This document shows positions 7,745-56,267 of a stretch of DNA of 64,000 nucleotides, piece by piece. The stretch lies in the UHGV virus genome UHGV-0468246; one strand, 5' to 3'. A model generated the notes under the pieces. It made no database searches, was not told the DNA's origin, and worked only from the letters and a program-made list of their open reading frames with translations. Source of the stretch: a virus. Position 1 is the first letter of the stretch, and each line of letters begins with the position of its first letter. The position numbers and the translations under genes are program-made.

Positions 7745-9199
7745 TCACTTCTCCCACGAGACCATGCCGGGGAACCGAGTGTCGCCCTTCTCGCACTGCG
7801 GGCACACGAGCGTCACGCTCGTGCTGTACTGGCCCGCGTTCGGGCCTCCGCTGTGCTGCACGTTGGTGACGTACCCGGAAAGCCCCAAGCTCTTCACCTT
7901 CACGCGCATGCCGGGCCAGATGTTCGGCATCCACGTTATCTGCAAGCTCATCTGGTACTGGTTGGCCCAGTTTCGCATGAACTCGTACAGCGCGTAAAGG
8001 AACGGGAGGATGTACTGCGGGTTCGCGTCCGTCCCTCCGCTCGTCCCGCTGTCGTTCGGCTTCTCGATGACGTGCTGAAGCTGCTTCTTGGCGGGCCTCG
8101 CCCCGTAGCGGCGGTACAGCTCGCGCGGCGTGAACCGCCACTCCTCGCCCTCCGGTATGTTGATGAGCTTCTTCAGCAGCTCGCTCGGCTCGTTCGATAT
8201 GGCGTTCTCCCCGACATCGTTCAAAACGCCCGACGACAAGGCGGCTGTGTTGCTCTCGATGGACACCACGCCCTGCGTGAGCGCCCATTGCATGTCGGAG
8301 GTCTGGCCGCTGCTTGTGAGGTACTGCCCGCCGGTGTTCACGCCTGCGCAGAACTGATGGCTCACGAACGTGTCGTCGGACTGGGTTATCTTCAGGTCGA
8401 TCAGCTCGATGTCGTCGAGCAGAAGGCACGGCGTGTTGCCAGAAACGCCCCAGTAGTCGGGATACCACGCCATGAAGGTACCGTCCGGCCCGGCCATCAC
8501 CGTGCGCATGGACGAGTTGAATATGTCCTTGACCGTGTTCCACACCGGCTCGTCGTTCGCCAGCGCGCGCTCGCCGACGAGCAGCTGGGATGCCGCCGCG
8601 TTCATCGTGTCGCCGAAGCTCGATGCGAAGAACCACGCCGTCGAGGCGAGGGAGCCTGACGAGGAGTTCGCCCCTCCGCCCTGCGCCTCGGCCTCCTCGG
8701 TGCTGTCAGCATCGCCGCCGTACTCGCTCGCCGTTATTCCGTCCTTGCTCTGAACGTACCTCGGCGTAACAAACAAGAAGCCGCCGCTGTCGTACACGTT
8801 CACCGACAAGTTGTACTTCAGGGCATAGGACGATATTGCGTTGACGGCGTTCAACTTGGTTCGCTCGCCAACGTCGATAAGGGAGAACTCCCATGCAAGC
8901 CCGTAGCCGAAATAATGTATGTACTGCAAGAACTTGACGTTGCCGTCCTCGGCCCACCTCTCGGCGCTCTCCTTTGACACGTAGCCTGAATAGCCGAAGT
9001 CTATGGTAAGCCCGTTGTAGTTCTTTTCGAGGTCTGCCGCAAACAGGCGACACGCCGCCTCGAACGCGCCTTGGAGGCCGTTCGTGCCCTCTCCGCGCGT
9101 TTCGGCCTCGTTAACCCCCGCGTACTTGTCGTCGTCGGTTGGCACGAAGTACTTCCCTAGCATCCTATCCTCCGAACTGGTCGTACGCCGACCGGGCAT
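7745..9199 (-). CDS. hypothetical virion protein (484 aa)
   Basis: Long ORF, protein-like composition, tightly packed with its neighbours. Confidence 0.5.
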   Translation of the reverse strand: MPGRRTTSSEDRMLGKYFVPTDDDKYAGVNEAETRGEGTNGLQGAFEAACRLFAADLEKNYNGLTIDFGYSGYVSKESAERWAEDGNVKFLQYIHYFGYGLAWEFSLIDVGERTKLNAVNAISSYALKYNLSVNVYDSGGFLFVTPRYVQSKDGITASEYGGDADSTEEAEAQGGGANSSSGSLASTAWFFASSFGDTMNAAASQLLVGERALANDEPVWNTVKDIFNSSMRTVMAGPDGTFMAWYPDYWGVSGNTPCLLLDDIELIDLKITQSDDTFVSHQFCAGVNTGGQYLTSSGQTSDMQWALTQGVVSIESNTAALSSGVLNDVGENAISNEPSELLKKLINIPEGEEWRFTPRELYRRYGARPAKKQLQHVIEKPNDSGTSGGTDANPQYILPFLYALYEFMRNWANQYQMSLQITWMPNIWPGMRVKVKSLGLSGYVTNVQHSGGPNAGQYSTSVTLVCPQCEKGDTRFPGMVSWEK

Positions 9200-10301
9200 A
9201 TGCGATGCGCTTCTCCATCATGGGGACGGAACCGCGCGTGTACACCCGCTCGAACGCCTCCGTTGCCCATGGCAGATCGGTGATCGCCTTGAACTGGTCG
9301 AACGTCATCTTCTCCGCTATCCACGCCTGCGCGCCGTTCGGATACGTGTAAACTCCGTTGCCGGTGAAAGCGTCGAACTGGGCGGGTGCCTCGCTGACGA
9401 AGAACAAGAGCTGCGCCTGTATGTCCGTCCATTCGGTGCCGCGCTCCGACGCGAAGGCGCACAGGTCGCTGAACCGGCCAGAACCCGCCTCCCACTGAAG
9501 CAGCCCGCGTCCGGGGCCTCCGCCTCCTTGGCACGCCGCCGGGTCTACGCCGCTCTCCTGCTGCATGTTCCCGATCACGCCAGCCGCCGCCTGCTTGCTG
9601 AAGCCTTGGCTCATGCAGAAGTTCCACACCACCTCCGCGTTGCTGTTGCCGCTGAAGTCGGCAGCTCCGCCCGACGACGAGCCTTCGCTTGCCCCTCCTA
9701 TGGCGGGGCCTGACGTTTGCAGCATCTTGTAGATTTGATTCACCATGTCCGCACCTTGGGTGTCCGAGAGCTTCGCTTGGTACATGGATGTCGCCCACTC
9801 GATCACGTCGCTCGGTATCTGGCCCACGCTGATCTTCGACGCGGGCCAGTCCGCGACCGCTTGGAGCACCTTGACCCCGCTCTTCCAATAGCCGCCGTCC
9901 TGCTCCGTATCGTCCTGCCCACGATAGACGAGCCAGAAGCTCTCCTCCAAGCCCGCGTCCCAGTAGAGCTTCTGCAAGCGGTACAGGACATCGCGCCCCC
10001 TTATCTCAACCTCGTCGGTGTTGAGGTTGTAGTAAGGGGCCTTCGTGACGTAGCCCGCGAGGACTTGGTAGCGGTCTGCCTTGGAGAGGTATATGGCGAT
10101 CTTGTCCATGGGCATGAGAAGCCCGGTGTACTTTTCCCCCTCGTTCTTCAGGTGCAGGATGAAGTCGCTCGAATCGTCCGTCTTCAGGTTGACGGTGAAC
10201 CGCGTGATGTCGTCCGAGAGGTCGTACGCAGTCGTCCTCCCGTCGCGCGTCAGCGACACGTTGGCCTCGACCATGGGGGTGTATGTAAGGATAGCCGTCA
10301 T
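9165..10301 (-). CDS. tail-associated cell-wall hydrolase, paralog 3 (shared N-domain plus phage-tail-lysozyme-like C-domain)
   Basis: The N-terminus MTAILTYTPMV and an internal GADMVNQIY motif are shared with two paralogs. The C-terminal part (GVIGNMQQESGVDPAA...GLLQWE) resembles the phage tail lysozyme domain. A TGgTAGAAT extended -10 sits 7 nt before the ATG at 10301, which suggests a leaderless transcript. Confidence 0.55.
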   Translation of the reverse strand: MTAILTYTPMVEANVSLTRDGRTTAYDLSDDITRFTVNLKTDDSSDFILHLKNEGEKYTGLLMPMDKIAIYLSKADRYQVLAGYVTKAPYYNLNTDEVEIRGRDVLYRLQKLYWDAGLEESFWLVYRGQDDTEQDGGYWKSGVKVLQAVADWPASKISVGQIPSDVIEWATSMYQAKLSDTQGADMVNQIYKMLQTSGPAIGGASEGSSSGGAADFSGNSNAEVVWNFCMSQGFSKQAAAGVIGNMQQESGVDPAACQGGGGPGRGLLQWEAGSGRFSDLCAFASERGTEWTDIQAQLLFFVSEAPAQFDAFTGNGVYTYPNGAQAWIAEKMTFDQFKAITDLPWATEAFERVYTRGSVPMMEKRIAYARSAYDQFGG

Positions 10302-10350
10302 GGCTGACATTCTACCATTCGCGGCGCTCCCCCTCCATGCAGCTCGGCAC

Positions 10351-10368
10351 CTCGATTATTTAATCGAG
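10351..10368. promoter_or_regulatory. near-palindromic motif CTCGATTATTTAATCGAG (copy 1)
   Basis: Read directly. It contains the TAA stop of 10356..11063. On the minus strand it lies about 36 nt upstream of the TGgTAGAAT extended -10 that drives 9165..10301. Confidence 0.45.
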
Positions 10369-11063
10369 CGGAGACTGTAGAAGTAGAGCCACTGCGTGGC
10401 GTTAAGCTCCTCATCGGAATAAGGGCGCTGCGAGTTGTCGCCGCTCTTGGGGTCGCGGATGCGAACGTCGCCGTCGAAGCTCTGCCACAGCAGCACGACG
10501 TGGCCGCCGTAGCAGTTGCCCTGGCCGCCGAGCTGACCGGTCATACCGGCGAACACCACCGCGCCGTCCGCGCACTCCGCCAGCGCCTCGTCGAGCGTCC
10601 AGTAGATTTCGGAGCCGTCGAGGCCGTAGGCCTCCTCCGCGTACGCGCAGAACTTGCCGGGGTCGTTGACCCCATCGGTCAGGCACGTGTCGCCAACGAC
10701 CGCCGCGAGGTCGCGCGGGTAGGTGATCTGGTTCGTAAGGTACTCTATCGCCATGGCGGCGCACACGAGGCCGCACCCGGCCTGCGAGATCGACGAGCCT
10801 GCGTACTCGATTCCTCCCCACTGCGGGTCGTCCTGAAGGTACAGCGGCATGTTGTAGCCCGTCGGTATGGCCCTCTGGGCCTCTGTGGCGGGCGCTGGGA
10901 GGTCGTTAGCGTCGAAGTCGAGATAGGGTTCATCTTCGAGCCAAACGGGGGTTCTGGGAGGCTCTGCGTCCGTCTGTGGCACATCGGAGAAAACCGAATA
11001 GCCGATGATCGCCGCGAACAGCGCGGCGACCGCCAGACATTTTATGTAGCCGTTTCGTCTCAT
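10356..11063 (-). CDS. secreted papain-like (peptidase C39-like) cysteine peptidase
   Basis: Hydrophobic N-terminal signal/TM segment. Q...C (SQAGCGLVCAAMAIEY)...H arrangement typical of the C39-like fold. The stop codon TAA lies inside the palindromic motif at 10351-10368. Confidence 0.45.
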   Translation of the reverse strand: MRRNGYIKCLAVAALFAAIIGYSVFSDVPQTDAEPPRTPVWLEDEPYLDFDANDLPAPATEAQRAIPTGYNMPLYLQDDPQWGGIEYAGSSISQAGCGLVCAAMAIEYLTNQITYPRDLAAVVGDTCLTDGVNDPGKFCAYAEEAYGLDGSEIYWTLDEALAECADGAVVFAGMTGQLGGQGNCYGGHVVLLWQSFDGDVRIRDPKSGDNSQRPYSDEELNATQWLYFYSLRSIK

Positions 11064-11096: not shown

Positions 11097-11516
11097 TCAC
11101 CCGGTTCGCTCCCACAGCGGCACCGCCACCGACAACGGCATGTTGTTGTGAGGCCGGTTCTGCGCCATGGGCACGTCGTCCCTGTGGTTCTCCTCGTCGT
11201 TGATGAAGCCCCACCCGGAGGTACCGGTGCCTTGGAAGAACTCGACCCCCGACATGCTCGAACCAGAGGCTAGGTTGCACAGGAGCGCGTGCGCATGCCA
11301 CGGAAGCTCCGCAGCGGTGAGCGCGTGCGCGTTCTCCCCGTACCTTCCGCCCGTCCGGTACGTGCCGCCAGCCGCCACGAGGTACACGCCCTCGTCGTGG
11401 CGCTCCCACGTGGTGCCGGGCCACTCCGCGTTCGGGTCGCCCTTGCAGAACACGAACTCGCCGACGGCGTGCGGGCAGTAAACGGAGCGCTTCGGCCCGA
11501 AGAGGATGCTAGTCAC
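11097..11516 (-). CDS. tail collar domain protein, array member A
   Basis: 139 aa. Carries CPHAVG, WPGTTWE and HNNMP...PLWERTG motifs shared with the array. GTG start with GAAGGAGG RBS. Confidence 0.6.
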   Translation of the reverse strand: MTSILFGPKRSVYCPHAVGEFVFCKGDPNAEWPGTTWERHDEGVYLVAAGGTYRTGGRYGENAHALTAAELPWHAHALLCNLASGSSMSGVEFFQGTGTSGWGFINDEENHRDDVPMAQNRPHNNMPLSVAVPLWERTG

Positions 11517-11988
11517 GATGCGCCTCCTTCAGAGCGAGAAGCCCCCCCCCCGACGTGCACTTCCACACGTAGGCTGCGATGTACGGCGGAACGTTGTTGT
11601 GAGGCTTGTCGCCGCCCGTGTAGTAAATCAGGTTCTGCACCCAGTTCGACCACGCCCCCTCCGTGTAGGCCACGGTGCCGTCGTCCACCCTGTAGTCCCC
11701 GGAAGCGCTCATGTTGAACTTCTTCCCGTTCGGATTGTCGGGGGAGTGCGTGTGCCGGGGCATCTCATCGACCGTGAGGACGTGCGCGGCCTCGCCGCCC
11801 GTGCTGCCGACTGCGTACGCTCCGGAGGCCGCGCCCGCGCACACGAACGTCCCGGCGGCCAAAAGCTCCCACTTCGTCCCCGGCCATCTTGCTGACGGGT
11901 CGGTGTCCGACAGCGTGAAGTACAGGTCTCCCGCGTCGTACGGGCACAAGACCGATTTACCGCCGCCGCTCTGAACCTTGACCGTCAT
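11509..11988 (-). CDS. tail collar domain protein, array member B
   Basis: Has the LCPY...WPGTKWEL...GGEAAH...EMP.H.H...HNNVPPY..VWK motifs. The likely start is the ATG giving MTVKVQ. The C-terminal tail is translated through the G10 tract. Confidence 0.55.
   Translation of the reverse strand: MTVKVQSGGGKSVLCPYDAGDLYFTLSDTDPSARWPGTKWELLAAGTFVCAGAASGAYAVGSTGGEAAHVLTVDEMPRHTHSPDNPNGKKFNMSASGDYRVDDGTVAYTEGAWSNWVQNLIYYTGGDKPHNNVPPYIAAYVWKCTSGGGLLALKEAHRD
11542..11551. repeat. homopolymeric tract C10 on plus strand (G10 on coding strand) at the B/A junction
   Basis: Read directly from the sequence. It encodes the GGG in the C-terminal tail of B and lies about 30 nt upstream of the start of A. 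Confidence 0.8.
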
Positions 11989-12009
11989 AGCGGCATCGCC
12001 CCGCACAGA

Positions 12010-12411
12010 TCACGCGGTGCGCCTCCACAGCGGGACGCATACGGAGTACGGCATGTTGTTGTGGGGCTGGCCTCCGCCCGTGTGGACGGAACTGCTGTCA
12101 ATCCAGTTGTTGCCAGAAACAGCGGCGTACCTCCCCGTGTTGCCGCCCTTCGACAGCTCGACGTTCCAGTTGTTGCCGCCGTCGCCGGTGTGGCTGTGGC
12201 TCGGAATCTCCTCGATGGTGAGGATGTGCGAGTTCTCCCCACGGTTCGTGAGCGTCTTGAAGTTGTCGCCGGAAGAGACGAGGTAGGTTGCCTCCTCGTA
12301 TCTGGCCCATGTGGTGCCGGGCCACTCGCCGTTGGGGTCGAACTCGCAGTGCAGCCACGTTCCAACAGGATGCGGGCAGTAGTAGCCCTTCCCCTTGACG
12401 TTAAGCCGCAT
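12010..12411 (-). CDS. tail collar domain protein, array member C
   Basis: Starts MRLNVKGKGYYCPHPVG and ends HNNMPYSVCVPLWRRTA. Complete 133-aa paralog. Confidence 0.65.
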   Translation of the reverse strand: MRLNVKGKGYYCPHPVGTWLHCEFDPNGEWPGTTWARYEEATYLVSSGDNFKTLTNRGENSHILTIEEIPSHSHTGDGGNNWNVELSKGGNTGRYAAVSGNNWIDSSSVHTGGGQPHNNMPYSVCVPLWRRTA

Positions 12412-12844
12412 GGCGCATCACGGAGGCGGCTATGCCCCCCCCCCTGATCGTGCGCAGGTTTATCTTCACGGGCCAATTAGACCCGTTGCAGGTTCCGCCG
12501 ACATCGGAGAACGTCACCTTCGTCCCGGATATGGCGGCCCTCGCGCGCCAAAGGCACGAGTTGCCCCCAATCGCGGTTCCGAAATGGAGGTCTACCGTCT
12601 TGCCGTTCGGTGAGTACACGCGGAAGGTCGGGAGCCAAACGCCGTCGTTGTACATGCAGTCAAATTCAAGCCACTGGTAGCTCGCGGCGCTCGCGCTCAA
12701 CGCGTACACGTTGCCGTTGCTCAAAAGATGGCTGCCGCTCCACAAGGTCGCTACGCCCTGCTTCGAGTACGGGATGGTCGGTATCTGCGCGATGTTGAGC
12801 ACGGGCGTTTGAACGCCGGACGAGTTACGGTACTTCAGGTACAT
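12401..12844 (-). CDS. small beta-rich protein without collar motifs, inside the collar array (possible tip or receptor-binding module)
   Basis: About 147 aa from the internal ATG (MYLKYRN...). No HNNMPPY motif. The C-terminal tail RGGGIAAS is encoded by the G10 tract. Confidence 0.45.
   Translation of the reverse strand: MYLKYRNSSGVQTPVLNIAQIPTIPYSKQGVATLWSGSHLLSNGNVYALSASAASYQWLEFDCMYNDGVWLPTFRVYSPNGKTVDLHFGTAIGGNSCLWRARAAISGTKVTFSDVGGTCNGSNWPVKINLRTIRGGGIAASVMRHAA
12435..12444. repeat. homopolymeric tract C10 (G10 coding) at the D/C junction
   Basis: Read directly. It encodes RGGG in the tail of D and lies about 24-33 nt upstream of the ATG of C. Confidence 0.8.
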
Positions 12845-12864
12845 CTCATGCCTCCTCTCGGAGG

Positions 12865-13293
12865 CTACGCGGTGCGCCTCCACATATCGACGGAAAGGTA
12901 CGGGGGCCTGTTCTCATGCGGCTTGTTCCTTCCGGGGAGCCGAACGTACTTATCTTCCCACTTGACCTTACCGTATTCGCTCGTAATGCCCCAAGCGTCT
13001 GCTCCGCCGCTATTGTCGCGCTGCTTCGATTGCAGATAGATTTGCGGCAAAGCGTCTGCCGACAACGTGACGGAGGCTGCGCCGCCGGTATTGCCGACGG
13101 CGTAATCGCCGGTCGTCGCGCCTCCGCTCGACACGAGGAAGGTGCCCGCAGCGATGCGCGTCCAAGTCGTCCCCGGCCAGAGAGCGGACGGCGTGACGTT
13201 GGATGCGCTGATGTAAACCCCTCCCACCGGGAACGGGCAGAACTGCTGAACGGATGCTCCGTTGCGCCATTTGAGGACGGACAGGTTAGCCAT
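12865..13293 (-). CDS. tail collar domain protein, array member E
   Basis: Has FCPFPVGGVY...WPGTTW...HENRPPYLSVDMWRRTA. ATG giving MANLSV at 13293. Confidence 0.6.
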   Translation of the reverse strand: MANLSVLKWRNGASVQQFCPFPVGGVYISASNVTPSALWPGTTWTRIAAGTFLVSSGGATTGDYAVGNTGGAASVTLSADALPQIYLQSKQRDNSGGADAWGITSEYGKVKWEDKYVRLPGRNKPHENRPPYLSVDMWRRTA

Positions 13294-13314
13294 GCAGACC
13301 ACCGCCCGAAGATG

Positions 13315-13735
13315 CTACGCGGTGCGCTCCCACATGTACACGACGAGGTACGGGGGCATGTTGTTGTGCGACTGCCCCCCCCGCCAAATGCATGACATCG
13401 CTGTCAACCGGGTCGCCCGCCATCATGCCGCGCGATATGCACATTTGTTCTTGCGTTCCGCTGCCGGTGCGCCAATATCCCTGCGTGTCGTGGTTGTGGG
13501 GCGGCATCTCTGCCTTCGTCAAGGTATGCCTCTCCTCGCCGCCGGTCGAGCCTGCCGACTTGGAGCCTGCGGCGTACAGGAACACGTCCTGCAACCTTCT
13601 CCACGTCCCGCCCATGAACGTTGACGGGTCGGTCGCCTTGGTCGAATGGTAGATGCTGCCCACCGGGAAGAACAGGTTCAGGAGCGAGACGGTCGAGCCG
13701 CCCGCCCTCGCCTTGAAGCCGAGCGCGGTGGTCAC
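13315..13735 (-). CDS. tail collar domain protein, array member F (frameshifted at G8 tract: phase-variable or pseudogene)
   Basis: The N-terminal 118 aa are collar-like (FFPVGSIY, GGTW, EMPPHNH). The conserved C-terminus QSHNNMPPYLVVYMWERTA followed by a stop is in the other frame, directly after the G8 tract. It would be in frame with 9 G. Confidence 0.5.
13375..13382. repeat. homopolymeric tract C8 (G8 coding) inside collar gene F
   Basis: Read directly. It separates the N-terminal part of F from its out-of-frame conserved C-terminus. Confidence 0.8.
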
Positions 13736-13756
13736 AAGATCACCGCCTCTCGCTCG

Positions 13757-14167
13757 TTACGAAACCCTCTTCCACATATCGACCGCGAGGTACGGAGGCC
13801 GGTTCTCGTGCGCGCCTCCTTCTCCCGTGTCGCCGGAGAAGGTGTTAGACCAGAACGTGTTGCTGCCGTTGATGAAGTACAGACATGGAGAGCTTCCGCC
13901 GCCCGCGTCGTACCCGTTGTATATGGAGTGCTGGTGGCTCGGAATCTGCGCCGTGGTGAGGGCGACGGAAGCCGCCCCTCCCGTCTTGCCTGCGGCATAG
14001 TCACCCGACGCGACACCGCCGCTCGACGCGAGGAACGTGCCGGAAGCGATGCGCTCCCAAACCGTCCCCGGCCAGAAGCCAGCCGGGTCGATGTTGGAGA
14101 CGTTGAAGTAGACGCTGCCGACGGGCAGGGGGCAGTAATAGCCCGTGCCGACGACTTTAAGCCGCAT
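13757..14167 (-). CDS. tail collar domain protein, array member H
   Basis: Starts MRLKVVGTGYYCPLPVG and ends HENRPPYLAVDMWKRVS. GGGAGGTG RBS. Confidence 0.65.
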   Translation of the reverse strand: MRLKVVGTGYYCPLPVGSVYFNVSNIDPAGFWPGTVWERIASGTFLASSGGVASGDYAAGKTGGAASVALTTAQIPSHQHSIYNGYDAGGGSSPCLYFINGSNTFWSNTFSGDTGEGGAHENRPPYLAVDMWKRVS

Positions 14168-14179
14168 GGGGCACCTCCC

Positions 14180-14595
14180 CTACGCCGTGCGCCTCCAAAC
14201 GAACACGGTTGCGTACGATGGGTAGAACGGTGCCCCCCCCCGGTCGTGCCAGTGGTCGTGCCGGTCTTGGCATCTCCGTCTCCCCATGCGGGCGCGCTCG
14301 CCACTCCGCTCACGTTCCAGCAGAACTTGCCGGTGCTCACGTAGAGATGGCTGTGCGCTGGCATCTGCGACACGCTTATGGTGTCGCTGCCGCCGGTCGC
14401 CCCCGCCTTGGAGGACGCGGAGCCGCCGCGAAGGTACCTGTCGGTCGCGTACAGCGCCCACGTCCCGCCGAGGAACGAGGATGGGTTCTTGTTCTCGTAG
14501 GTGAGGTACGCGCTCCCCACGGGAAAGAACATGTCAAGAAGGGTCACGGTCGCGCCGTTCGCCTTCAGCTTCACGCCATGGGCGGTAACGGTCAT
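14180..14595 (-). CDS. tail collar domain protein, array member G (frameshifted at G9 tract)
   Basis: The N-terminal 118 aa are collar-like. The conserved end APFYPSYATVFVWRRTA is in the frame of track ORF 14180..14461. It would be in frame with 10 G. The 287-aa track ORF 13732..14595 is a read-through artefact. Confidence 0.5.
14233..14241. repeat. homopolymeric tract C9 (G9 coding) inside collar gene G
   Basis: Read directly. It separates the N-terminal part of G from its out-of-frame conserved C-terminus. Confidence 0.8.
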
Positions 14596-14613
14596 GCCAT
14601 CACCGCCTTTCGG

Positions 14614-15018
14614 TCATGAGATTCTGCGCCAGAAGTACACCGCAACGTACGGCGGCATGTTGTTGTGGGCGGCATTGCCGCCGACGCTGACGAGCCTTCC
14701 CAGATTGCCGCTCGGGGCGTATCCGTACTCTCCCTGCGCGAACGCCCTGTTCCCGAGGTCTCCGACGATGAGCATGTCGGCTGATGGGTTGTGGTTGTGA
14801 GATGGCATCTCCGAGACGGAGAGCTTATGGGCCGCCTCGCCACCGGTCGCCCCTCCGGCGTACGACGAACCTGCGCCGAGCAGGAACCGGTCTTTCCCGT
14901 AAAGGCTCCACGAGGTTCCGGGCCAATAGGACGACGGGTTGACGTTCTCCGTCGAGATGTAGATGCCGTTCGGCTGGACGGGGCAGTAGCAGCCGTGTCC
15001 GGGGACGTTAAGCCGCAT
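14614..15018 (-). CDS. tail collar domain protein, array member I
   Basis: Starts MRLNVPGHGCYCPVQPNG and ends AAHNNMPPYVAVYFWRRIS. GGGGAGG RBS. Confidence 0.65.
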   Translation of the reverse strand: MRLNVPGHGCYCPVQPNGIYISTENVNPSSYWPGTSWSLYGKDRFLLGAGSSYAGGATGGEAAHKLSVSEMPSHNHNPSADMLIVGDLGNRAFAQGEYGYAPSGNLGRLVSVGGNAAHNNMPPYVAVYFWRRIS

Positions 15019-15042
15019 AGGGCACCGCCTCCCCGCACGGGG

Positions 15043-15470
15043 CTACATTGCGGTTGCCCCCCCCCGGTTCGCTTCCACATGTACACGGCGAGCCAAGGCG
15101 GCATGTTGTTGTGCGCGGCATTGCCGCCGACGCTCGCCGACGCGACGATTGCCGTGTTGCCGGTGTACGCGAAGCCGTTGCCGGGAGAGCCGTCCGTTCC
15201 AGTCCATTGCGGCCACTCGACGTTGTGCGCATGGCTCGGCATCTCGTTCACGGTGAGCTTATGGGCCGCCTCGCCGCCGGTGTTCCCGACCTTGTAGGTG
15301 CCCGAGGCCGCACCGGCCACGAGGAACGTACCGGCTGCGACCAGCTCCCACGTCGTGTCGCCCCAGCGCGTCGCCGGGTTGACCGCCGACATGGTTACGT
15401 ACACGTCTCCGACCGCGTACGGGCACAGGTTCTTCTTAGCGCCGTTCTGGCTGTATGAGAGGGCGGTCAT
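15043..15470 (-). CDS. tail collar domain protein, array member J2 (3' end depends on G-tract length)
   Basis: Starts MTALSYSQNGAKKNLCPYAVGD and runs to AAHNNMPPWLAVYMWKRT, followed by the G9 tract. With 9 G the frame reads through gene I to 14592. With 10 G it stops at about 15043. Confidence 0.45.
15057..15065. repeat. homopolymeric tract C9 (G9 coding) at the 3' end of J2, upstream of I
   Basis: Read directly. It follows the VYMWKRT motif. Its length decides whether J2 terminates or reads through gene I. Confidence 0.8.
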
Positions 15471-15486
15471 GCGACCACCCCCCGCG

Positions 15487-15914
15487 CTACGCCGTCCTCT
15501 TCCAGACGTTGACGGAGATGTGGAGCGGGTAGTAGTCCGCCCCCCCCCTGTTGCGTTCGTCCATGCGTCGAACGTGTATAGCGAATCTTCGACAACGCCG
15601 GAAAGGGCGAAGTTCTCGCTGCCTTCCACGTTCTCCCTCAACGTGGTCGTGACAGACCTTGTTCCCGAATGGATGTGCGACGGCATCTGGCCGACGCTTA
15701 TCTTCTTCGAGCCGCCTACGGCACCAGCCGCAGCGTACCCAGCCGTCCCGGCGCACGCGAGCACGCCGCCCGTCAGCTTCACCCACGTGCCGCCGAAGAC
15801 GGTGTTCGGGTCTTCCGAGCCGACGGTGAGGTAAAGGCTGTTCACCGGGCGCACGAGGTCGAGCATCGTCTTGTCGATGCCGCCCTCCAGATGGAACCCG
15901 CTCAATCTTGCCAT
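15487..15914 (-). CDS. tail collar domain protein, array member J1 (frameshifted at G9 tract)
   Basis: The N-terminal 122 aa are collar-like. The conserved end ADYYPLHISVNVWKRTA is in the frame of track ORF 15487..15786. It would be in frame with 10 G. AGGAGG RBS. A TGcTATCAT extended -10 lies upstream. Confidence 0.5.
15540..15548. repeat. homopolymeric tract C9 (G9 coding) inside collar gene J1
   Basis: Read directly. It separates the N-terminal part of J1 from its out-of-frame conserved C-terminus. Confidence 0.8.
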
Positions 15915-15968: not shown

Positions 15969-17060
15969 CTACGCCGCCTTCTCGTAGCGGAAGAAGTGCG
16001 TCCAGCCGCCGGAGATTTTCACCACGGAGATTTCATCGCCCGTCTGGTCTCCGCCCTGCCCGTATATGCCGCCGTCCTCCGCGCTGTGAGCGCCCGCCGT
16101 CTCTCCGTTGCCGATGTACCATTCCGTGTGCGCTGCGCGCCACATGATGTCGCCGCGCTTCAGCGAGCCGACGTTGCCGTCGTACGGGTACATCTTCCAT
16201 CCGATGGGCGGAAGAACCTCCTGCATGCGCGTCGTGTTGAACGTCCAGCTTCCAAGCTCCTCGCGCGTCCATCCACCGGCGAGGAGCGAGTAGAAGACCA
16301 ATGACGAGCAGTCGTAATCGGGGTTCCCGTCGCGGTTCCCCTGACTGTACCCGTGGCTGTCGTCGTTGCATATCTGTATGGCCCACTGCACGGCCTTCTC
16401 GACCGCCTCGTACGAAGCGGTTCCCCCTCCGGCTGACGACGAGCCGCCGGAGCCTATGGCGGGGCCTGACGTTTGCAGCATCTTGTAAATCTGGTTCACC
16501 ATGTCCGCGCCTTGGGTGTCGGCCAGCTTGACGCGGTACATCGACGTTGCGAACTCGATCACGTCGTCGGGCAGCTGCCCTATGGCGATCTTCGACGCGT
16601 CCCAGTTGGCGACGTTGGTGAGCACGTTCGCCCCCACGCGCCAGTACTCCTCGTGCGTCTTCCACGTCGAGCTGTTCGTGAACAGGAGCTGCTGCGATTC
16701 GTACAGCCCCGCGTCCCAGTAGAGCGCTTGGAGGCGGTAGAGCGCGCACTTCCCGGACATCTCGAAGTCGGCGTTGTAGAGCCGCCAGAAGTCGCACTTG
16801 GTGATGTACCCGGCGAAGACCGGGTACTCGTCGCCCTTGGACAGGCGTATGACGATTCTGTCCATGGGCGTGAACGCCCCGTTGTACTTGCCGCCCTTGT
16901 TCTGAAGTGACAGGGAGAACGTGGAGCAGCTATCGACGTTCAGGTTTATCTTGAAGCCGGTGATGTCGTCGGTGAGGTCGTACGCGCGCACGGAGCCGTC
17001 CTGCTGGCGCACCGCCACCTCGGCCTTGACCATCGGCGTGTAGGTGAGTATGGCCGTCAT
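15969..17060 (-). CDS. tail-associated cell-wall hydrolase, paralog 2 (shared N-domain plus NlpC/P60- or CHAP-like C-domain)
   Basis: Internal start giving MTAILTYTPMV (the track ORF is N-extended with Arg-rich junk). Shares GADMVNQIY. The C-terminal part has a Cys...His arrangement (DCSSLV...H) typical of papain-like amidases. ATGA overlap with the upstream paralog. Confidence 0.5.
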   Translation of the reverse strand: MTAILTYTPMVKAEVAVRQQDGSVRAYDLTDDITGFKINLNVDSCSTFSLSLQNKGGKYNGAFTPMDRIVIRLSKGDEYPVFAGYITKCDFWRLYNADFEMSGKCALYRLQALYWDAGLYESQQLLFTNSSTWKTHEEYWRVGANVLTNVANWDASKIAIGQLPDDVIEFATSMYRVKLADTQGADMVNQIYKMLQTSGPAIGSGGSSSAGGGTASYEAVEKAVQWAIQICNDDSHGYSQGNRDGNPDYDCSSLVFYSLLAGGWTREELGSWTFNTTRMQEVLPPIGWKMYPYDGNVGSLKRGDIMWRAAHTEWYIGNGETAGAHSAEDGGIYGQGGDQTGDEISVVKISGGWTHFFRYEKAA

Positions 17061-18157
17061 GGCAGAAGCCCCGGCCTGCACGGATAGGCCTCGTCGAGTA
17101 TAACGCCGCCGTTCCAGCCCCACCCGGTGCCCTGCGGCACGTAGGTGTTGCCGGAGTTCACCCATTCCGTCAGCGACCACTCGTGCACGTACCCTATGTT
17201 GTCGAGAACCACGCCGTTGCCGACGTAGATTCCCACATGGCCGTACACGCATCCGGGGTTGCCGGAGTTGTCCCAGCCGTAGCCGAACACGGCTGCTCCG
17301 ACCTTGACCTTGCTCCAATCCGTCGATGCGCCCCACGCCCGCGCCGCCTCGCGCGCCGAAGACTTGCGGGGTATCTTGATTCCGGCAGCGTCGAACACGT
17401 CGTCAACCCACTTCTGGCAGAAGCCGCCCTGCGTGGTTATGCCGTACCTCTCGGAGTTCTTCGCGACCTCGACGATCTTCTTCTGCGCCTCGGTCACGTC
17501 GCCGTCGAACACGTCCCCGCCGAGGCCCCCGATGTCCCCCGTCGCCTCCGTGAAGGTAGGCCCCGACACCTGCAACATCGAGTAGATTTGATTCACCATG
17601 TCGGCTCCCTGCGTGTCGGCCAGCCTCGCATCGTACATCGACAGCGCCCACTCGATGACCTCGGTCGGTATCTGGCCCACGCTGATGCGCTCGGCGGGCC
17701 AACCGGCGACGCTCATCAGGACGTTGGCTGCGGCGCGCCAGTAGCCGCCGTCCTGATCGGAGCTTTCGGCGCTCTGGAAAGTGACAAGCTCGCGAGACGC
17801 GAGAAGGCCGCTGTCCCAGTAAAGGGCCTGCAAGCGCCATAGAACGTCCTTGCCCGTTATGGTGACGGGCTGCGAGTTCAGCATGAACATGGGAACCTTC
17901 GTGACGTAGCCCGCGAGGACTTGGTAGCGGTTCGCCTTGGAGAGGTATATGGCTATCGCGTCCATGGGCTTGAACGCCCCGTCGTACTTGCCGCCGACGT
18001 TCTGAAGCGTGAGCGAGAACGTGGAGCAGCCGTCGGTGTTCAGCGTCACGGAGAAGTCGGTGATGTCGTCGGTGAGGTCGTAGTACTTGTAGCCGTTCGC
18101 CGTCTGCGCCCTCACCTGCGCGCTCACCATCGGCGTGTAGGCGAGTATGGCCGTCAT
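17057..18157 (-). CDS. tail-associated cell-wall hydrolase, paralog 1 (shared N-domain plus CHAP-like C-domain)
   Basis: Starts MTAILAYTPMV and shares GADMVNQIY. The C-terminal part (GFCQKWV...GHVGIYVG) is CHAP-like. Confidence 0.55.
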   Translation of the reverse strand: MTAILAYTPMVSAQVRAQTANGYKYYDLTDDITDFSVTLNTDGCSTFSLTLQNVGGKYDGAFKPMDAIAIYLSKANRYQVLAGYVTKVPMFMLNSQPVTITGKDVLWRLQALYWDSGLLASRELVTFQSAESSDQDGGYWRAAANVLMSVAGWPAERISVGQIPTEVIEWALSMYDARLADTQGADMVNQIYSMLQVSGPTFTEATGDIGGLGGDVFDGDVTEAQKKIVEVAKNSERYGITTQGGFCQKWVDDVFDAAGIKIPRKSSAREAARAWGASTDWSKVKVGAAVFGYGWDNSGNPGCVYGHVGIYVGNGVVLDNIGYVHEWSLTEWVNSGNTYVPQGTGWGWNGGVILDEAYPCRPGLLP

Positions 18158-18666
18158 GCCCCGGTCGCCTCCCCACGGAACGCAGCGTCGCCCTGCGCCT
18201 TGATATCGTCCTGCTCAACCTTGTCGGCGGGGATGTCGCCAACGCCTCCGGTGTTCTCGCTCTCGTTGCCCTCCTCGCCCGTCTCGTCCTTGACGATGAC
18301 GCACTGGTAGGAGTTTTGGTAGACGGAATCGCCGAACTTCACGTCAACCGGGAAGCTGGTGAACGCGATGGAGTAGGACTTCTTTATGACGGGTATGGAG
18401 AGCACCATGTGGCTCGGCTTGGTCATCGAGGTGAGGTACATGTGGTACTCGGCTATCCAGCGCGAGAACTCCAAGTACTCCTCCCGGCTCCTGAACGCGA
18501 GGCCGAGCGTTATGTCGCTCTTGCGCCAGTTGCGGGGGTACGCCGTCTGCCCCTGCCGCGCGTACGACGTTGCCGTGAGGCCGAGCGACATGCCGAAGGC
18601 GAAGTCCTCGACTATGACATCCTTGCTCCTGCCGTTGTACGTCAGCGTCCCGTTGAACGTTCCCAT
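18154..18666 (-). CDS. hypothetical tail/baseplate protein (170 aa)
   Basis: Protein-like ORF directly downstream of the tape measure block. Confidence 0.4.
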   Translation of the reverse strand: MGTFNGTLTYNGRSKDVIVEDFAFGMSLGLTATSYARQGQTAYPRNWRKSDITLGLAFRSREEYLEFSRWIAEYHMYLTSMTKPSHMVLSIPVIKKSYSIAFTSFPVDVKFGDSVYQNSYQCVIVKDETGEEGNESENTGGVGDIPADKVEQDDIKAQGDAAFRGEATGA

Positions 18667-18667
18667 G

Positions 18668-19381
18668 TCAGCTCACCCTGTTGTAGGAGCCGTCTTCGTT
18701 CCACACGTAGCGAACCATCTCCGACGTGCCGCCCGACACTTCGAGGCGCACCACGCCGTCGTCGGTCGTGACCTCCCCGTCGTCGTTCTGCCTGATCTTC
18801 TCGTACTGCTCGTAGAGGCTCGCGCCGTAAGCGTCGTAGCTCCCGCTGTTCTCCACGACCTGCTTCAGCGCCTTCAGCATGTCTTCCCAGTTGTTCGTGT
18901 CGGGCGTGTTGTACACGCTGCGCGTCCACCCAACGCCGTCGGGGATGGCGTTGAGCGCGTCGGTCGCCACGATCTCCTTGATGGTGTCGAAGCCGGTATC
19001 GACGAAGAACGTGAGCTGGTAGCTTATGGCCGCGACCTTCGGGCTGTAGCTGAACTTCGACACGTCCTTCAGGAACACCTTCCCGTTCCATCCGAGCACC
19101 GGGAAGTAGAACGTGACCGGGTTGCCGGTGTCCACATGGTACTGCATGATGTCGGCCATCTTCTGCTGGAACTCCTCCATGCGCTGGTAGCGGTTCTCGT
19201 TCGTGAGGCCGCGCGCCGAGAGGTAGCCGGTGATGGTGAGGTCGCCGATGTTGCGCGCGATGATCTGGACGACGGTGCCGCCCTTCGTCTGAATCTTGTT
19301 CGTCTTCAGCTCGTAGCCCCATTTCGCCGTGCTGGGGTCGATGCCGAACGCGTAGTTGCCGAGCCTCGCCGTAGCCATCAC
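18668..19381 (-). CDS. hypothetical tail protein (237 aa)
   Basis: Protein-like ORF directly downstream of the tape measure gene. Stop and start overlap. Confidence 0.45.
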   Translation of the reverse strand: MMATARLGNYAFGIDPSTAKWGYELKTNKIQTKGGTVVQIIARNIGDLTITGYLSARGLTNENRYQRMEEFQQKMADIMQYHVDTGNPVTFYFPVLGWNGKVFLKDVSKFSYSPKVAAISYQLTFFVDTGFDTIKEIVATDALNAIPDGVGWTRSVYNTPDTNNWEDMLKALKQVVENSGSYDAYGASLYEQYEKIRQNDDGEVTTDDGVVRLEVSGGTSEMVRYVWNEDGSYNRVS

Positions 19382-29266: not shown

Positions 29267-29275
29267 CCCCCCCCC
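29267..29275. repeat. homopolymeric tract C9 in the intergenic promoter region between the capsid terminator and the palindromic motif
   Basis: Read directly. It is the only run of 8 or more C or G outside the collar array. Confidence 0.8.
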
Positions 29276-29330: not shown

Positions 29331-29361
29331 AAAAAAAAAGAACCCCTCTCGCGAGGGGTTC
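29331..29361 (-). terminator. rho-independent terminator downstream of the major capsid gene
   Basis: On the minus strand, the hairpin GAACCCCTCGCGAGAGGGGTTC is followed by T9. Confidence 0.6.
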
Positions 29362-29375
29362 TTCTCTTGCTGCGG

Positions 29376-30329
29376 TTAAGCTCCATTCAAGTCCATGCGG
29401 ACGACACCGTAGGAGTTGGCGATGATCTCGTTGATGAGTTCGCTGTACACCCAGCCGATGGTGAAGTTCTCGGCCTTGGGGTTGTCCACGCCGTCGAGCT
29501 GCTTCAGAATCGGCATCCAGCCAAGATACTCCGGCTCCGGAACGAGGTAAATCTTGTTCATCGGGCAGATGATCGAGGTCATGATGGAGAAGCGGCCCAT
29601 CTTGGTGATCGGCTTGCCGTCCATCACGTCGTCGAGGAACTTAACGCCCGTGGTGTCGAGCTTCCACTTGTACAGGTCGTTCGCCGTCGCCGGGTTCATG
29701 ATGACGCGGTTGGACTGCAAGCGGTTCTGGATGGCGATCTTCTCGGCATCGTAGAACGCGCCGGGGTTGATCTCGCCGGTGACCGTGGTCACATGCGAGG
29801 TGAGGCCCGCCCAGTCCGGGTTTTCGGAGGTGATCTTGGACACGGCAGCGTCGAGCGAGGAGAACAGGTAGCCGTCCTCCTGCTCCATGATGCGCTGCTC
29901 GGCCTCGCCCTTGGCGTAGTCCACCATGTTGATGGCGAGCTTGTAGATGTCCTCCTCGGCGATCTGGGGGAACGCCGCGATGCGGATGACCTCGTAGCGT
30001 ACGCGGTTGCCCTCGTACTGCGCGATCTTCACTTCGTTGTCGTGCGGTTGCAGCTTGTAGGCCGCGCCGAACTCGGTGGTGATGTCGTAGAACAGGCCAG
30101 CGCCCTGCGGCAGCGGGTCTTCCATCAGAACGGAGCGCACGATGCCCTCGTAGCGGAGACGCATGATGATCGGGCCTACCACGCCCTGCGCGACCTTGGT
30201 GGACGCGAGACGCATGTCGTGGCGGTTGTCCGTCAGAATCTTGTTGAGCGCCGCCTGACGCTTCGCGGGGGACGACGGGTTCGCACCCATCTCCGCGACG
30301 ATCTCGGCGGAAGTCTTAGGCATTGCCAT
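29376..30329 (-). CDS. major capsid protein (putative)
   Basis: 317 aa. Lies after the scaffold and decoration-like genes and is followed by a strong terminator. Confidence 0.5.
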   Translation of the reverse strand: MAMPKTSAEIVAEMGANPSSPAKRQAALNKILTDNRHDMRLASTKVAQGVVGPIIMRLRYEGIVRSVLMEDPLPQGAGLFYDITTEFGAAYKLQPHDNEVKIAQYEGNRVRYEVIRIAAFPQIAEEDIYKLAINMVDYAKGEAEQRIMEQEDGYLFSSLDAAVSKITSENPDWAGLTSHVTTVTGEINPGAFYDAEKIAIQNRLQSNRVIMNPATANDLYKWKLDTTGVKFLDDVMDGKPITKMGRFSIMTSIICPMNKIYLVPEPEYLGWMPILKQLDGVDNPKAENFTIGWVYSELINEIIANSYGVVRMDLNGA

Positions 30330-34678: not shown

Positions 34679-34735
34679 CGCACTTTTCCTTCCAACGTCC
34701 GAGGGAGGGCGCTCGCCCTCCCTTTGATTTCCGAT

Positions 34736-36391
34736 CTAGCGCACATGCTCCCATTCGGGGTCGTAGGCGAACGGGATGTCGTACCACACGTCGCCGTCGA
34801 TCTCGTCTACGAACGTGGTGACTTGGTTCTTGTACTCATAGCCGTCGATCAGCGTCTCCGTCTCCGGGGTCTTGCGCAGGTACAGGTCGGAGTTCCAGTG
34901 GTCGATATCGCTGTCCGGGATGTTCACGGTCTGCTCGTACAGGCTCTGGGCCTTCTTCACGCTCGCGGTCATGGCTGCGGCCTTCCTCTTGGGGTTCTTC
35001 CTGCCGCCCATCTTACCACAAGTCTTAACTTTTGTCTTAACTTTTCCCTCAACTTTTTCTTTTACACTTTCGGCGGCCTTGATGTTCCTCTCGGCCAGCG
35101 CCACCAGCATGCGGTCGTGGATGTCGCACGCGAGCTTCGAGCGCGATGCCACGCGGAAGGCGAAGCCGTTTTCGATGGTGTACCCGTCGTTGATAACGAT
35201 GTCGCGGCCGAAGCCCTCGTAGTCGAAGTACATCTCCTTCTCGTCGTCGCTGATGCCGTCGAAGCCAAGCTCATCGACGATGCGGTACCCCAAGTCGCGC
35301 TCGTCGTACACGTCGCTCCAATAGTCAACGTCGTCGATGTGCTCGGCGACGTATTCAAGGCTTTCGTAGTCGAGCAGCGCGTCGAGCAGATCGTCGTCGA
35401 GGTCTGCGTCCTCTATGGCCTCCACCCACTCGTTCACGCTGTATATGTCGTCGTACTCGCCGACGCTGCTGCCAAGCCCGTCGGTGTCGGCGATCATTAC
35501 CTCTTCGTAGAACTCGCCGTCGGGGCCGGTCTGCGCGCGCTCTATCGCCTCGTCTATCTCGCTGTCGCTCGCGGGGAGGGACAGCCAGTCGCCGTTGGTC
35601 GGGTTGGACACAGCGCCTATGAAGATCGCAACGTCGCCGCCGAACGCGACCTTGCGCGCCGCCCAAGCCTTGTAGCGCGCCTCCTTGGTCTTCAGGCGCG
35701 GCTTGCGGTTGCCAACGTGCTTGGCGGACTTCACGGCCTCCGCCTTGTACTCCGCGTAGGCCTTCTTCTCCGTCAGCTTCGCGCAAGCGATCAGGCCGAC
35801 GGTGCAGCCCATGCCAGCGAGGTGGTGGCGCACGTCGTCGTCGATCTTGCGGGCCATATGGCGCTCGGCCATGCGGGATGCCACCCATTCCGCCTTGGCG
35901 ATCTCCCCTGCGGGCACGCCGTCGGGGTCTCCGTCCATGAGGTCGTCAGCCGCGTCGGTAAGCTCGTCGATGTCCTGCGCGACCCTGAACGCGGCGCTCT
36001 CCTTCTCGTGCGCCTTCAGGTGCTCTTCCAAAGCGTCGTCGGCATCGTTCTTGGCATCCTCGATGCTGTCGGAATGCCCGCTGTCCACGGTGCGGTCGTC
36101 GGTGTCCAGCACGTCCCAGCGGTAGCGCTTCTCGCCGCCGTCGTCCCACTTGACGGTCGCCTGATAGCCGCCGTCGTGCTTGCGCCACGTGGTGTCCTTC
36201 TCGTCCGGGTTCCCCTCGTTGTCTGCCTTCCATTCAGCGGCCATCTTGCGGCCTCCTTCCATGCGCTTCAGGCGCTTCAGCTCGTCTCGCTGGTGGTCTG
36301 TCTCGTCGTAGTCGTAAGGCAGCGCGAAGTCCGTCACGCAGTCGCCGTCGCCCTCGCGAGCCTTGCGGCTCATACCCTTAACAAGCTCCAT
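34736..36391 (-). CDS. large acidic protein with ArdA-like antirestriction segment
   Basis: About 551 aa from MELVKG with AAGGAG RBS. The segment MYFDYEGFGRDIVINDGYTIENGFAF closely resembles the conserved ArdA block (YIDYQAYGRDL...HGIFE of Tn916 ArdA, as I recall it). Confidence 0.45.
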   Translation of the reverse strand: MELVKGMSRKAREGDGDCVTDFALPYDYDETDHQRDELKRLKRMEGGRKMAAEWKADNEGNPDEKDTTWRKHDGGYQATVKWDDGGEKRYRWDVLDTDDRTVDSGHSDSIEDAKNDADDALEEHLKAHEKESAAFRVAQDIDELTDAADDLMDGDPDGVPAGEIAKAEWVASRMAERHMARKIDDDVRHHLAGMGCTVGLIACAKLTEKKAYAEYKAEAVKSAKHVGNRKPRLKTKEARYKAWAARKVAFGGDVAIFIGAVSNPTNGDWLSLPASDSEIDEAIERAQTGPDGEFYEEVMIADTDGLGSSVGEYDDIYSVNEWVEAIEDADLDDDLLDALLDYESLEYVAEHIDDVDYWSDVYDERDLGYRIVDELGFDGISDDEKEMYFDYEGFGRDIVINDGYTIENGFAFRVASRSKLACDIHDRMLVALAERNIKAAESVKEKVEGKVKTKVKTCGKMGGRKNPKRKAAAMTASVKKAQSLYEQTVNIPDSDIDHWNSDLYLRKTPETETLIDGYEYKNQVTTFVDEIDGDVWYDIPFAYDPEWEHVR

Positions 36392-56122: not shown

Positions 56123-56267
56123 GAGATACCCCTAACAAAAAAAAGACCTGTCGGACATTTCGCGTAGGGGTGCGCGATGACCTAAACAAGTCTTTCCGAC
56201 ATTTTAGATCATCACGCACCCCTACGCAAGACCCCATTGTATACCCAAGCGCCCAGAGATTACAAGA

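Follow-up and report, generated by a model that had tools for sequence, protein, structure and literature searches.

Among described systems, the closest to the locus reported here are the Fletchervirus phages of Campylobacter. Tracts of 7-11 G are reported in the receptor-binding-protein genes of these phages, and through their switching part of the phage population can infect Campylobacter cells whose receptor is phase-off (Sørensen 2021, Cell Rep 35:109214, summarized in bioRxiv 10.1101/2025.10.21.683753; also cited in PMC12823448). In phages T2 and T4, short homopolymers have been described as contingency loci that undergo reversible frameshifts by polymerase slippage, with bet-hedging as the proposed role (Gomez, Barrick and Waters, bioRxiv 10.1101/2025.10.21.683753); the same study found runs of at least 6 nucleotides to be under-represented in the tail-fiber genes of 41 BASEL coliphages, at 0.77 of expectation. 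Further poly-G tracts are on record for BPP-1 and for a PB1-like baseplate gene. Here, we analyzed a tandem array of ten small paralogous genes and one unrelated gene, located at 11097-15914 on the minus strand of a 64,000-nucleotide stretch of virus genome UHGV-0468246 (hereafter the window) and punctuated by six poly-G tracts of 8-10 nucleotides. These tracts are real, strongly enriched and hypervariable, and in nature one and the same allele is met in both its on and its off version, in combinations that differ between genomes. We regard it as very likely that the tracts are hypervariable switches of reading frame, and as likely that the array is a group of contingency loci within the baseplate module, the virus being a lytic Eggerthella lenta myovirus resembling phage LE2-3. 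That the switching serves adaptive host-range bet-hedging is a reading toward which we lean only slightly.

Megablast against 50,697 phage records returned a single relative of the window, Eggerthella phage LE2-3 (MW679026.1; 111,961 bp; host E. lenta DSM 2243; source, activated sludge, Cork), at 98-99.5% identity across nearly the full length and about 90% at 33488-36367. Since the LE2-3 annotation includes a tail sheath, baseplate J, terminase, portal and the phage's own replication genes, we take LE2-3 to be a lytic myovirus. A literature search found no description of LE2-3 or its tracts.

In the mechanism we favor, an uninterrupted run of 7-13 G in the genes J1, G and F encodes a Gly-Gly-Gly stretch immediately before the last beta-strand, and slipped-strand mispairing during phage DNA replication would gain or lose one G. 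The C-terminal strand would be in frame at 7, 10 or 13 G (on) and out of frame at any other length (off), the window representing a state with J1, G and F all off. In J2, D and B, tract length would set only the C-terminal tail and the point at which the ribosome stops; in J2 and D, one frame would read the whole next gene, and another would stop at the TAA within that gene's start, ATGCGGCTTAA. Switching would presumably be reversible within a lineage, the proteins would be virion adhesins and the switch would alter adsorption or host range.

Poly-G tracts in an array of gp10-like genes

Three-frame translation of the minus strand resolved the interval into ten Gp10_C-type paralogues of about 134-159 amino acids and the unrelated gene D, the composition that an earlier note had read from the letters alone. 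Starting at the upstream end, the genes are:

J1, 15487-15914, minus strand: off in the window (G9); full Gp10_C domain only with 7 or 10 G
J2, 15043-15470, minus strand: domain complete; G9 makes the open reading frame read through I
I, 14614-15018, minus strand: intact Gp10_C paralogue, 134 amino acids; start ATGCGGCTTAA, own Shine-Dalgarno sequence
G, 14180-14595, minus strand: off in the window (G9); in frame only with 7, 10 or 13 G
H, 13757-14167, minus strand: intact Gp10_C paralogue, 136 amino acids
F, 13315-13735, minus strand: off in the window (G8); frame restored only at 7 or 10 G
E, 12865-13293, minus strand: intact Gp10_C paralogue, 142 amino acids
D, 12401-12844, minus strand: 147 amino acids, not Gp10_C; tract in the C-terminal tail
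C, 12010-12411, minus strand: intact Gp10_C paralogue, 133 amino acids
B, 11509-11988, minus strand: intact Gp10_C paralogue; a short tail after the domain holds the tract
A, 11097-11516, minus strand: intact Gp10_C paralogue, 139 amino acids; strong Shine-Dalgarno sequence GAAGGAGG

The six tracts that the earlier note had located were all recovered at exactly the same positions, as poly-C on the plus strand and poly-G on the coding minus strand:

J1 tract, 15540-15548, minus strand: G9 (C9 on the plus strand), encoding Gly-Gly-Gly before the last beta-strand
J2 tract, 15057-15065, minus strand: G9, in the 3' tail of J2
G tract, 14233-14241, minus strand: G9
F tract, 13375-13382, minus strand: G8
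D tract, 12435-12444, minus strand: G10, in the 3' tail of D
B tract, 11542-11551, minus strand: G10, in the 3' tail of B

The tracts of J1, G and F each sit just upstream of the last beta-strand (...HNNMPPYLxVYxWxRTA or ...DYYPLHISVNVWKRTA). We simulated the frame outcome of each tract at different lengths, which confirmed that all three genes are out of frame with this conserved C-terminal strand in the window. G and J1 return to frame at 10 G, as had been claimed, and 7 G works as well. F had been said to need 9 G; simulation gave 7 or 10, in agreement with natural F proteins of 139 and 140 amino acids. F thus carries one G too many or two too few, and the assertion that all three broken genes are exactly one G short does not hold. 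At G8, F acquires a 31-residue out-of-frame tail (open reading frame 13286-13735, 149 amino acids), and G at G9 passes out of frame through H (13732-14595, 287 amino acids). A further property had escaped the first reading: J1 at G9 continues in frame into J2, resulting in an open reading frame of 440 amino acids (14592-15914) whose LE2-3 equivalent, LE23_93 (306 amino acids), is annotated as 'tail protein'.

The tracts of B, D and J2 fall after the domain, which is kept at every length, so that only the tail and the stop position change. J2 at G9 covers 157 codons across I in the wrong frame and stops within 6-19 codons at other lengths, ending in ...GG(G)ATAM at G7 or G10 and at a TAA inside the start region of I at G8; the predicted read-through at G9, with termination at 8 or 10 G, was thereby reproduced. 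D stops at a TAA overlapping the start of C at G7 or G10, stops right after the tract, 22 nucleotides upstream of that start, at G9, and at G8 or G11 passes out of frame through all of C. In B, a stop is reached within 13 codons whichever of the three frames is read. As described before, the tracts of B and D belong to C-terminal tails; the next start codon is 25 and 23 nucleotides away, respectively.

Nine homopolymers of at least 8 nucleotides occur in the window, six of them in the array and the others at 29267-29275 (C9), 29331-29339 (A9) and 56137-56144 (A8); the initial count of six array runs out of seven is correct for G/C runs only. Under a first-order Markov model, 1.8 G/C runs of at least 8 are expected per 64 kb and 0.14 in the array, where six were observed (Poisson P = 8e-9). 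Across the window, G runs on the coding strand have lengths of 4, 5, 6 and then 8-10, length 7 being absent, and none of the 147 Gly-Gly pairs outside the tracts is encoded by GGG-GGG, though GGG accounts for 18% of Gly codons. The jump in run length, the enrichment and the avoidance of GGG-GGG indicate that the tracts form a discrete, non-random sequence class. They have the makeup of homopolymer contingency loci, that is, uninterrupted runs of at least about 7 bases in or beside coding regions that are commoner than expected by chance.

All ten paralogues matched Pfam PF21939 (Gp10_C, the C-terminal domain of T4 gp10) with E values of 1e-5 to 1e-22. Eight scored 39.6-82.1 bits, above the gathering cut-off of 27; A (26.7) and C (25.2) fell narrowly below it. 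The alignments ran from profile positions 1-19 to positions 137-139 of 139, and the repaired versions of F, G and J1 aligned to the last profile position. A family profile built from six window paralogues and 14 homologues matched residues 446-602 of T4 gp10 (2FKK, 5HX2; E = 5.7e-6), extending to the last gp10 strand, PYITVYRWIRIA, and PHROG matches fell in the C-termini of tail and tail-fiber proteins. The genes had first been assigned to the Pfam Collar domain; PF07484 gave no match for J2, I, H, E or D at E <= 10, the remaining proteins of the array were likewise negative at E <= 0.01, and the nearest approach was a set of weak matches to PHROG 4618, 'tail collar fiber protein' (E = 0.002-0.008). 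Judged by their analogy to gp10, the paralogues are probably trimeric and peripheral baseplate or adhesin subunits. Gene D had no match in Pfam, PHROG or NCBIfam, and the NCBIfam search was likewise negative for the array proteins and for the 235-amino-acid neighbor of the array.

Tract length variation in related genomes

To follow the tracts across relatives, we compiled about 35 related contigs, comprising LE2-3 (L001), one IMG/VR contig (L002) and metagenome contigs from ENA, Logan and JGI. The metagenome contigs were fetched via homologues of J1, G and F and by a pattern scan for the J1 tract; IMG/VR pattern scans returned nothing beyond the single contig already in the set. Most assemblies stem from human-gut or sewage-type samples and carry MEGAHIT- or SPAdes-style, that is short-read, contig names.

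In comparisons of the window with ten genomes at 99.1-99.9% identity, 41 of the 53 insertions or deletions (indels) lie in G runs of at least 6. The remaining 12 include five occurrences of the same 24-nucleotide in-frame duplication in D, two G5-to-G4 changes in A and four paired 1-nucleotide alignment gaps in a divergent stretch near the start of J1. The chance of a difference was 0.5-0.8 per tract versus 0.001-0.005 substitutions per base, corresponding to a 100-600-fold ratio. Versus LE2-3, in blocks of about 99% identity, isolated indels were mostly found in homopolymers of at least 8 (B, 10 versus 8; D, 10 versus 9; the intergenic C9, A9 and A8), with the exception of in-frame length differences of 6 and 24 nucleotides and a single base upstream of J1. 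Tracts differ in length even where genomes share 99.5-99.9% identity. The following tract lengths were seen in relatives:

J1 tract: 6, 7, 8, 9, 10 and the interrupted form GGGGGAGGG(G)
J2 tract: 8, 9 and A-interrupted forms
G tract: 7, 8, 9, 10, 13
F tract: 8, 9, 10 in DNA; 7 implied by the 139-amino-acid protein P0236
D tract: 8, 9, 10
B tract: 8, 9, 10, 12

For J1, G and F, identical alleles were found in nature in the on frame and in both off frames. Cluster representatives showed off states only, the in-frame forms appearing among cluster members. Tracts interrupted by GGA occur naturally in L029, L030 and L012. The J1 allele of the window, read with G10, exists as a natural in-frame protein of 142 amino acids (P0194), and further in-frame J1 alleles are P0196, P0185, P0186 and P0208; the two off frames of J1 are represented by P0189 (37 contigs) and P0191 (38 contigs). 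G is in frame in P0217 (G7, 137 amino acids), L032 (G10) and L035 (G13). In-frame F proteins comprise P0235 (G10, 140 amino acids, 10 contigs) and P0236 (G7, 6 contigs), and off forms of F comprise P0233 (73 contigs) and P0234 (16 contigs). Combinatorial on/off switching had been anticipated from the window, and different genomes indeed carry different combinations of states, given here in the order J1, G, F:

Window: off, off, off
L034: on, off, on
L032: off, on, on
L031 and L033: off, off, on
L037: -, on, off
L043: on, off, off

An assembly or sequencing artefact, in which homopolymer miscalls make intact genes look broken, would be in line with G and J1 being one G short of an in-frame length, and long-read under-calling had been raised as a caveat on the premise that all three broken genes are one G short. 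F, however, is not one G short, and the same off lengths recur in independent assemblies (F 8, G 9 and J2 9 in both L025, from ERR321617, and L014, from ERR14205626) and in the LE2-3 isolate genome, which shares the off lengths F 8 and J2 9. Moreover, tract lengths span 6-13 while non-homopolymer indels are almost absent, and errors would be unable to create the tracts or their clustering. We hence consider an artefact extremely improbable. Long-read under-calling in particular is excluded, because the variation is seen in mostly short-read MEGAHIT, SPAdes and Logan assemblies as well as in the isolate and because the same allele occurs in all three frames.

The out-of-frame majority could also be explained by recoding, whereby transcriptional slippage or ribosomal frameshifting would provide a low constitutive dose of full-length protein, tuned by the length of the tract in the DNA. 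Runs of 8-10 identical bases are slippery for RNA polymerase and tRNA-Gly, and recoding would reconcile a mostly out-of-frame J1 with the purifying selection on this gene described below. Programmed recoding, in turn, keeps one fixed frame relation, whereas here the same allele occurs in both off frames and in the on frame; in addition, slippage is much less efficient on G/C than on A/T runs. Recoding therefore appears improbable to us, and frame switching at the DNA level remains the reading we prefer.

Several local observations accompany this variation. The 24-nucleotide duplication is a tandem one at about 12786, adding about 8 residues near the N-terminus of D; it is present in LE2-3, L010, L031, L034, L037 and L039 and absent from the window. 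One G allele (P0053; L028, 2481-2897) leaves the frame at a G6 near residue 65 and regains the C-terminal frame after the G9, so that the middle of the protein is read out of frame. A G6 run at 15478-15483 lies 9 nucleotides upstream of the J2 start codon, in a Shine-Dalgarno-like position; the nine LE2-3-like relatives checked at this site (L010, L012-L016, L025; also L006-L008) all have G5 instead.

Selection, cassette turnover and possible neutral slippage

More distant relatives bear on the age of the tracts. In the divergent relative L027, the F-like and G-like genes contain an uninterrupted, in-frame G11, and the J1-like gene contains an off tract of G10. A distant relative (L017-L024) has two Gp10_C genes only, both intact, with GGGGGAGGGG in frame at the homologous site and no G or C run of at least 6 across 16 kb. 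Together, these relatives indicate that the long tracts appeared as the array expanded and were retained thereafter.

Between the J1 alleles of the window (G9) and L002 (G6), both off, we counted 24.8 synonymous and 25.2 non-synonymous changes, equivalent to a ratio of non-synonymous to synonymous rates (dN/dS) of 0.29 (Fisher P = 3e-5). J1 is under purifying selection, and a dN/dS of this size between two off alleles is a poor fit to a long-dead pseudogene. The other array genes showed dN/dS values of 0.5-1.2 versus 0.03-0.3 in flanking genes, on substitutions too few to judge.

The set of cassettes varies as well. LE2-3 is without H and G, L032 and L035 are without D and C, and L002 is without the F-to-J2 stretch and carries a new cassette. 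In two further proteins, P0177 (26 contigs) and P0197 (2 contigs), together at least 28 public contigs, the J1 body is fused to the J2 tail; this arrangement is a deletion of J2 between the two poly-G tracts (window 15057-15548), which suggests that the tracts additionally provide microhomology through which cassettes are lost. We rejected an invertible cassette, as no flanking inverted repeats were present, the one 20-nucleotide pair being only 85% complementary and 2.3 kb apart. The LE2-3 annotation lists neither an invertase nor a reverse transcriptase, so that diversity-generating retroelements were rejected along with inversion.

A number of findings weigh against an adaptive switch. The on state is a minority: some 8-20% of contigs carry it, against roughly one third expected for tracts of random length, and the locus sample is partly biased in that some loci were obtained through in-frame proteins. 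Plaque formation by LE2-3, in which J1 and F are off and G and H are missing, indicates that J1, G, F and H are dispensable on DSM 2243. For most tracts, G9 is the commonest length irrespective of its effect on the frame; mutational equilibrium alone could thus explain the excess of off states. All long homopolymers outside the array that LE2-3 also has, the intergenic A and C runs among them, differ in length, which makes slippage a general property of the phage and not one targeted to the array. Defects that are apparently fixed occur in some lineages, namely an interrupted, out-of-frame J1 tract in L012, a premature stop in the J1 of L010 (P0013, 83 amino acids) and a gene A broken by the G5-to-G4 change at about 11250 in L025 and L031, where even a short G run has occasionally slipped. 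Finally, the tracts of B, D and J2, three out of six, leave the domain undisrupted, and the B-type tract of L006, L008 and L026 directly follows the stop codon and is hence non-coding. The original proposal of slipped-strand phase variation is supported by the length polymorphism of J1, G and F; the tracts of B, D and J2 switch no domain off.

Off-state predominance, plaque formation by LE2-3, the G9 peak, the variable intergenic runs and the fixed defects are all compatible with neutral slippage in redundant, decaying paralogues, in which the array would have grown by duplication and the on/off polymorphism would be mutational noise. Whole cassettes coming and going between genomes and an array dN/dS above that of the flanking genes, albeit from small counts, point the same way. 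Decay, however, does not account for the dN/dS of J1, nor for the persistence of uninterrupted tracts in divergent lineages, including the on-state G11, though a single G-to-A change would stabilize them. In the same line, GGG-GGG pairs are avoided elsewhere, the tracts cluster in two adhesin-like gene sets and in-frame versions of identical alleles recur across many independent samples. On this evidence we consider purely neutral slippage unlikely and retain contingency loci as the preferred interpretation of the array.

Second tract class, genomic setting and known systems

The tracts that follow a domain might still have a function of their own. C, H and I share the start ATGCGGCTTAA and follow, in this order, the tract-bearing genes D, G and J2. 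Of the three frames of the upstream open reading frame, one ends at that TAA, one ends before it and one passes through the entire downstream gene. H, I and A each have a Shine-Dalgarno sequence; none was seen before the ATG of C, for which reason the D tract could gate C by translational coupling. At G7 or G10 of D, the ribosome would stop at the TAA overlapping the start of C and thereby couple translation of C to that of D; at G9, it would stop 22 nucleotides upstream; and at G8 or G11, it would run through C out of frame and occlude it. That the tracts of D, J2 and perhaps B represent such a three-state translational switch for the next gene is a doubtful proposition in our view. If true, it would, in combination with the three intradomain switches, allow one genotype to give rise to dozens of baseplate compositions, mostly with most paralogues silent.

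LE2-3 contains a second cluster of four 8-9-nucleotide tracts next to small tail-fiber-associated genes, and 9 of its 22 long runs fall within 5% of the genome (P = 5e-6). This second cluster lies at 16824-18902 of the LE2-3 record (L003), about 2.7 kb past the right end of the window, and consists of the four small paralogues LE23_36 to LE23_39, adjoining a collagen-like 'putative tail fiber protein 1'. The motif MA[KI][LI]KYRG.GGVVELLD opens three of these four proteins, with looser variants otherwise. Each has an 8-9-base homopolymer (poly-C on the coding strand) 35-45 nucleotides upstream of its start codon, a position that suggests phase variation of the promoter or 5' untranslated region type. 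We also asked whether gene D is a homologue of LE23_36 and LE23_37; the resemblance is limited to a short N-terminal 'LKYR', BLASTP was not significant and no homology is asserted.

The window has 63% G+C, with nearly all genes on the minus strand, and its array lies inside the baseplate module, as does that of LE2-3. The immediate neighbors are:

15969-17060: Amidase_5 hub-like gene, the upstream flank of the array
10356-11063: gene for a 235-amino-acid protein, the downstream flank of the array
9165-10310: Phage_lysozyme2 gene, next after the 235-amino-acid gene

Farther out, an NlpC/P60-like paralogue lies upstream of the array, and two large genes and Baseplate_J lie downstream. The genes at 9165-10310, 15969-17060 and 17057-18157 are three paralogous baseplate genes with a stretch of common nucleotide similarity and differing hydrolase domains (Phage_lysozyme2, Amidase_5 and a weak NlpC/P60 match, respectively), and the array sits between the first two. 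In the distant relative, the baseplate module holds a TnpB-like gene (OrfB_IS605 / Cas12f1-like_TNB) after the lysozyme gene (L017, 10833-11600; L019, 3611-4378). The three window homopolymers outside the array are intergenic, each one base off its LE2-3 length; the major capsid gene (29376-30329) has C9 and A9 immediately downstream of it, the latter resembling a terminator T-run on the coding strand. The segment at 33488-36367, which shows many indels relative to LE2-3 and corresponds there to 'antirestriction protein' and 'ferritin-like' genes, is mosaic or replaced.

E. lenta, a gut bacterium of medical relevance, can inactivate drugs, digoxin among them; to our knowledge, very few of its phages have been characterized. 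If the switches alter adsorption, one phage stock would be a mixture of host-range variants, with a bearing on phage isolation, host-range typing, therapy design and strain-level dynamics in gut metagenomes. Since more than 100 public contigs already hold the tracts in different states and LE2-3 is cultivable, the idea is directly testable.

Compared with known systems, the array combines familiar parts in a new setting. Its structural match to the C-terminal domain of T4 gp10 and to the related gp11 and gp12 domains (2FKK, 5HX2, 1EL6) is weak, and the domain occurs here as free-standing proteins of about 135 amino acids in ten copies, not as the C-terminus of a 602-amino-acid wedge protein. 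With Mu gin, P1 cin and diversity-generating retroelements, the array shares a presumed purpose, namely alternative tail tips that change host range; it differs from them in having neither flanking inverted repeats nor, going by LE2-3, an annotated invertase or reverse transcriptase. Bacterial phase variation, as in the poly-G genes of Campylobacter jejuni, offers the same mechanism, tract lengths and combinatorial, multi-locus outcome; in contrast, the genome here is that of a virus and is replicated by the phage's DNA polymerase III alpha homologue, according to the LE2-3 annotation. The T2 and T4 loci are agt and rIIA, which are not adhesin genes, whereas here long runs concentrate in tail-associated paralogue arrays, contrary to the homopolymer depletion reported for coliphage tail-fiber genes.

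The likeness to Fletchervirus is closest. In both cases, G tracts lie in tail or receptor-binding genes of a lytic myovirus, and frame shifts yield subpopulations with different proteins. The earlier note knew of no such array in phage, and in this respect the published Fletchervirus tracts in receptor-binding-protein genes come first: the mechanism is ordinary slipped-strand phase variation, already known in phages. The resemblance is one of mechanism. The array also indicates that tail proteins are subject to poly-G switching in phages other than those of Campylobacter. Differences concern the phage lineage and the host phylum, here a high-GC Gram-positive gut actinobacterium, and the affected proteins, which are ten small tandem gp10 C-terminal-domain paralogues instead of large receptor-binding proteins. 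In J1, G and F, moreover, the tract occupies a constant structural position before the last beta-strand, and a second tract class resides in 3' tails or between genes. What is new relative to these systems is thus the host and phage lineage, the unusually dense tandem array of small gp10-C paralogues whose tracts keep one structural position, the additional class of tracts at 3' ends and the wide range of natural on/off states visible in public metagenomes.

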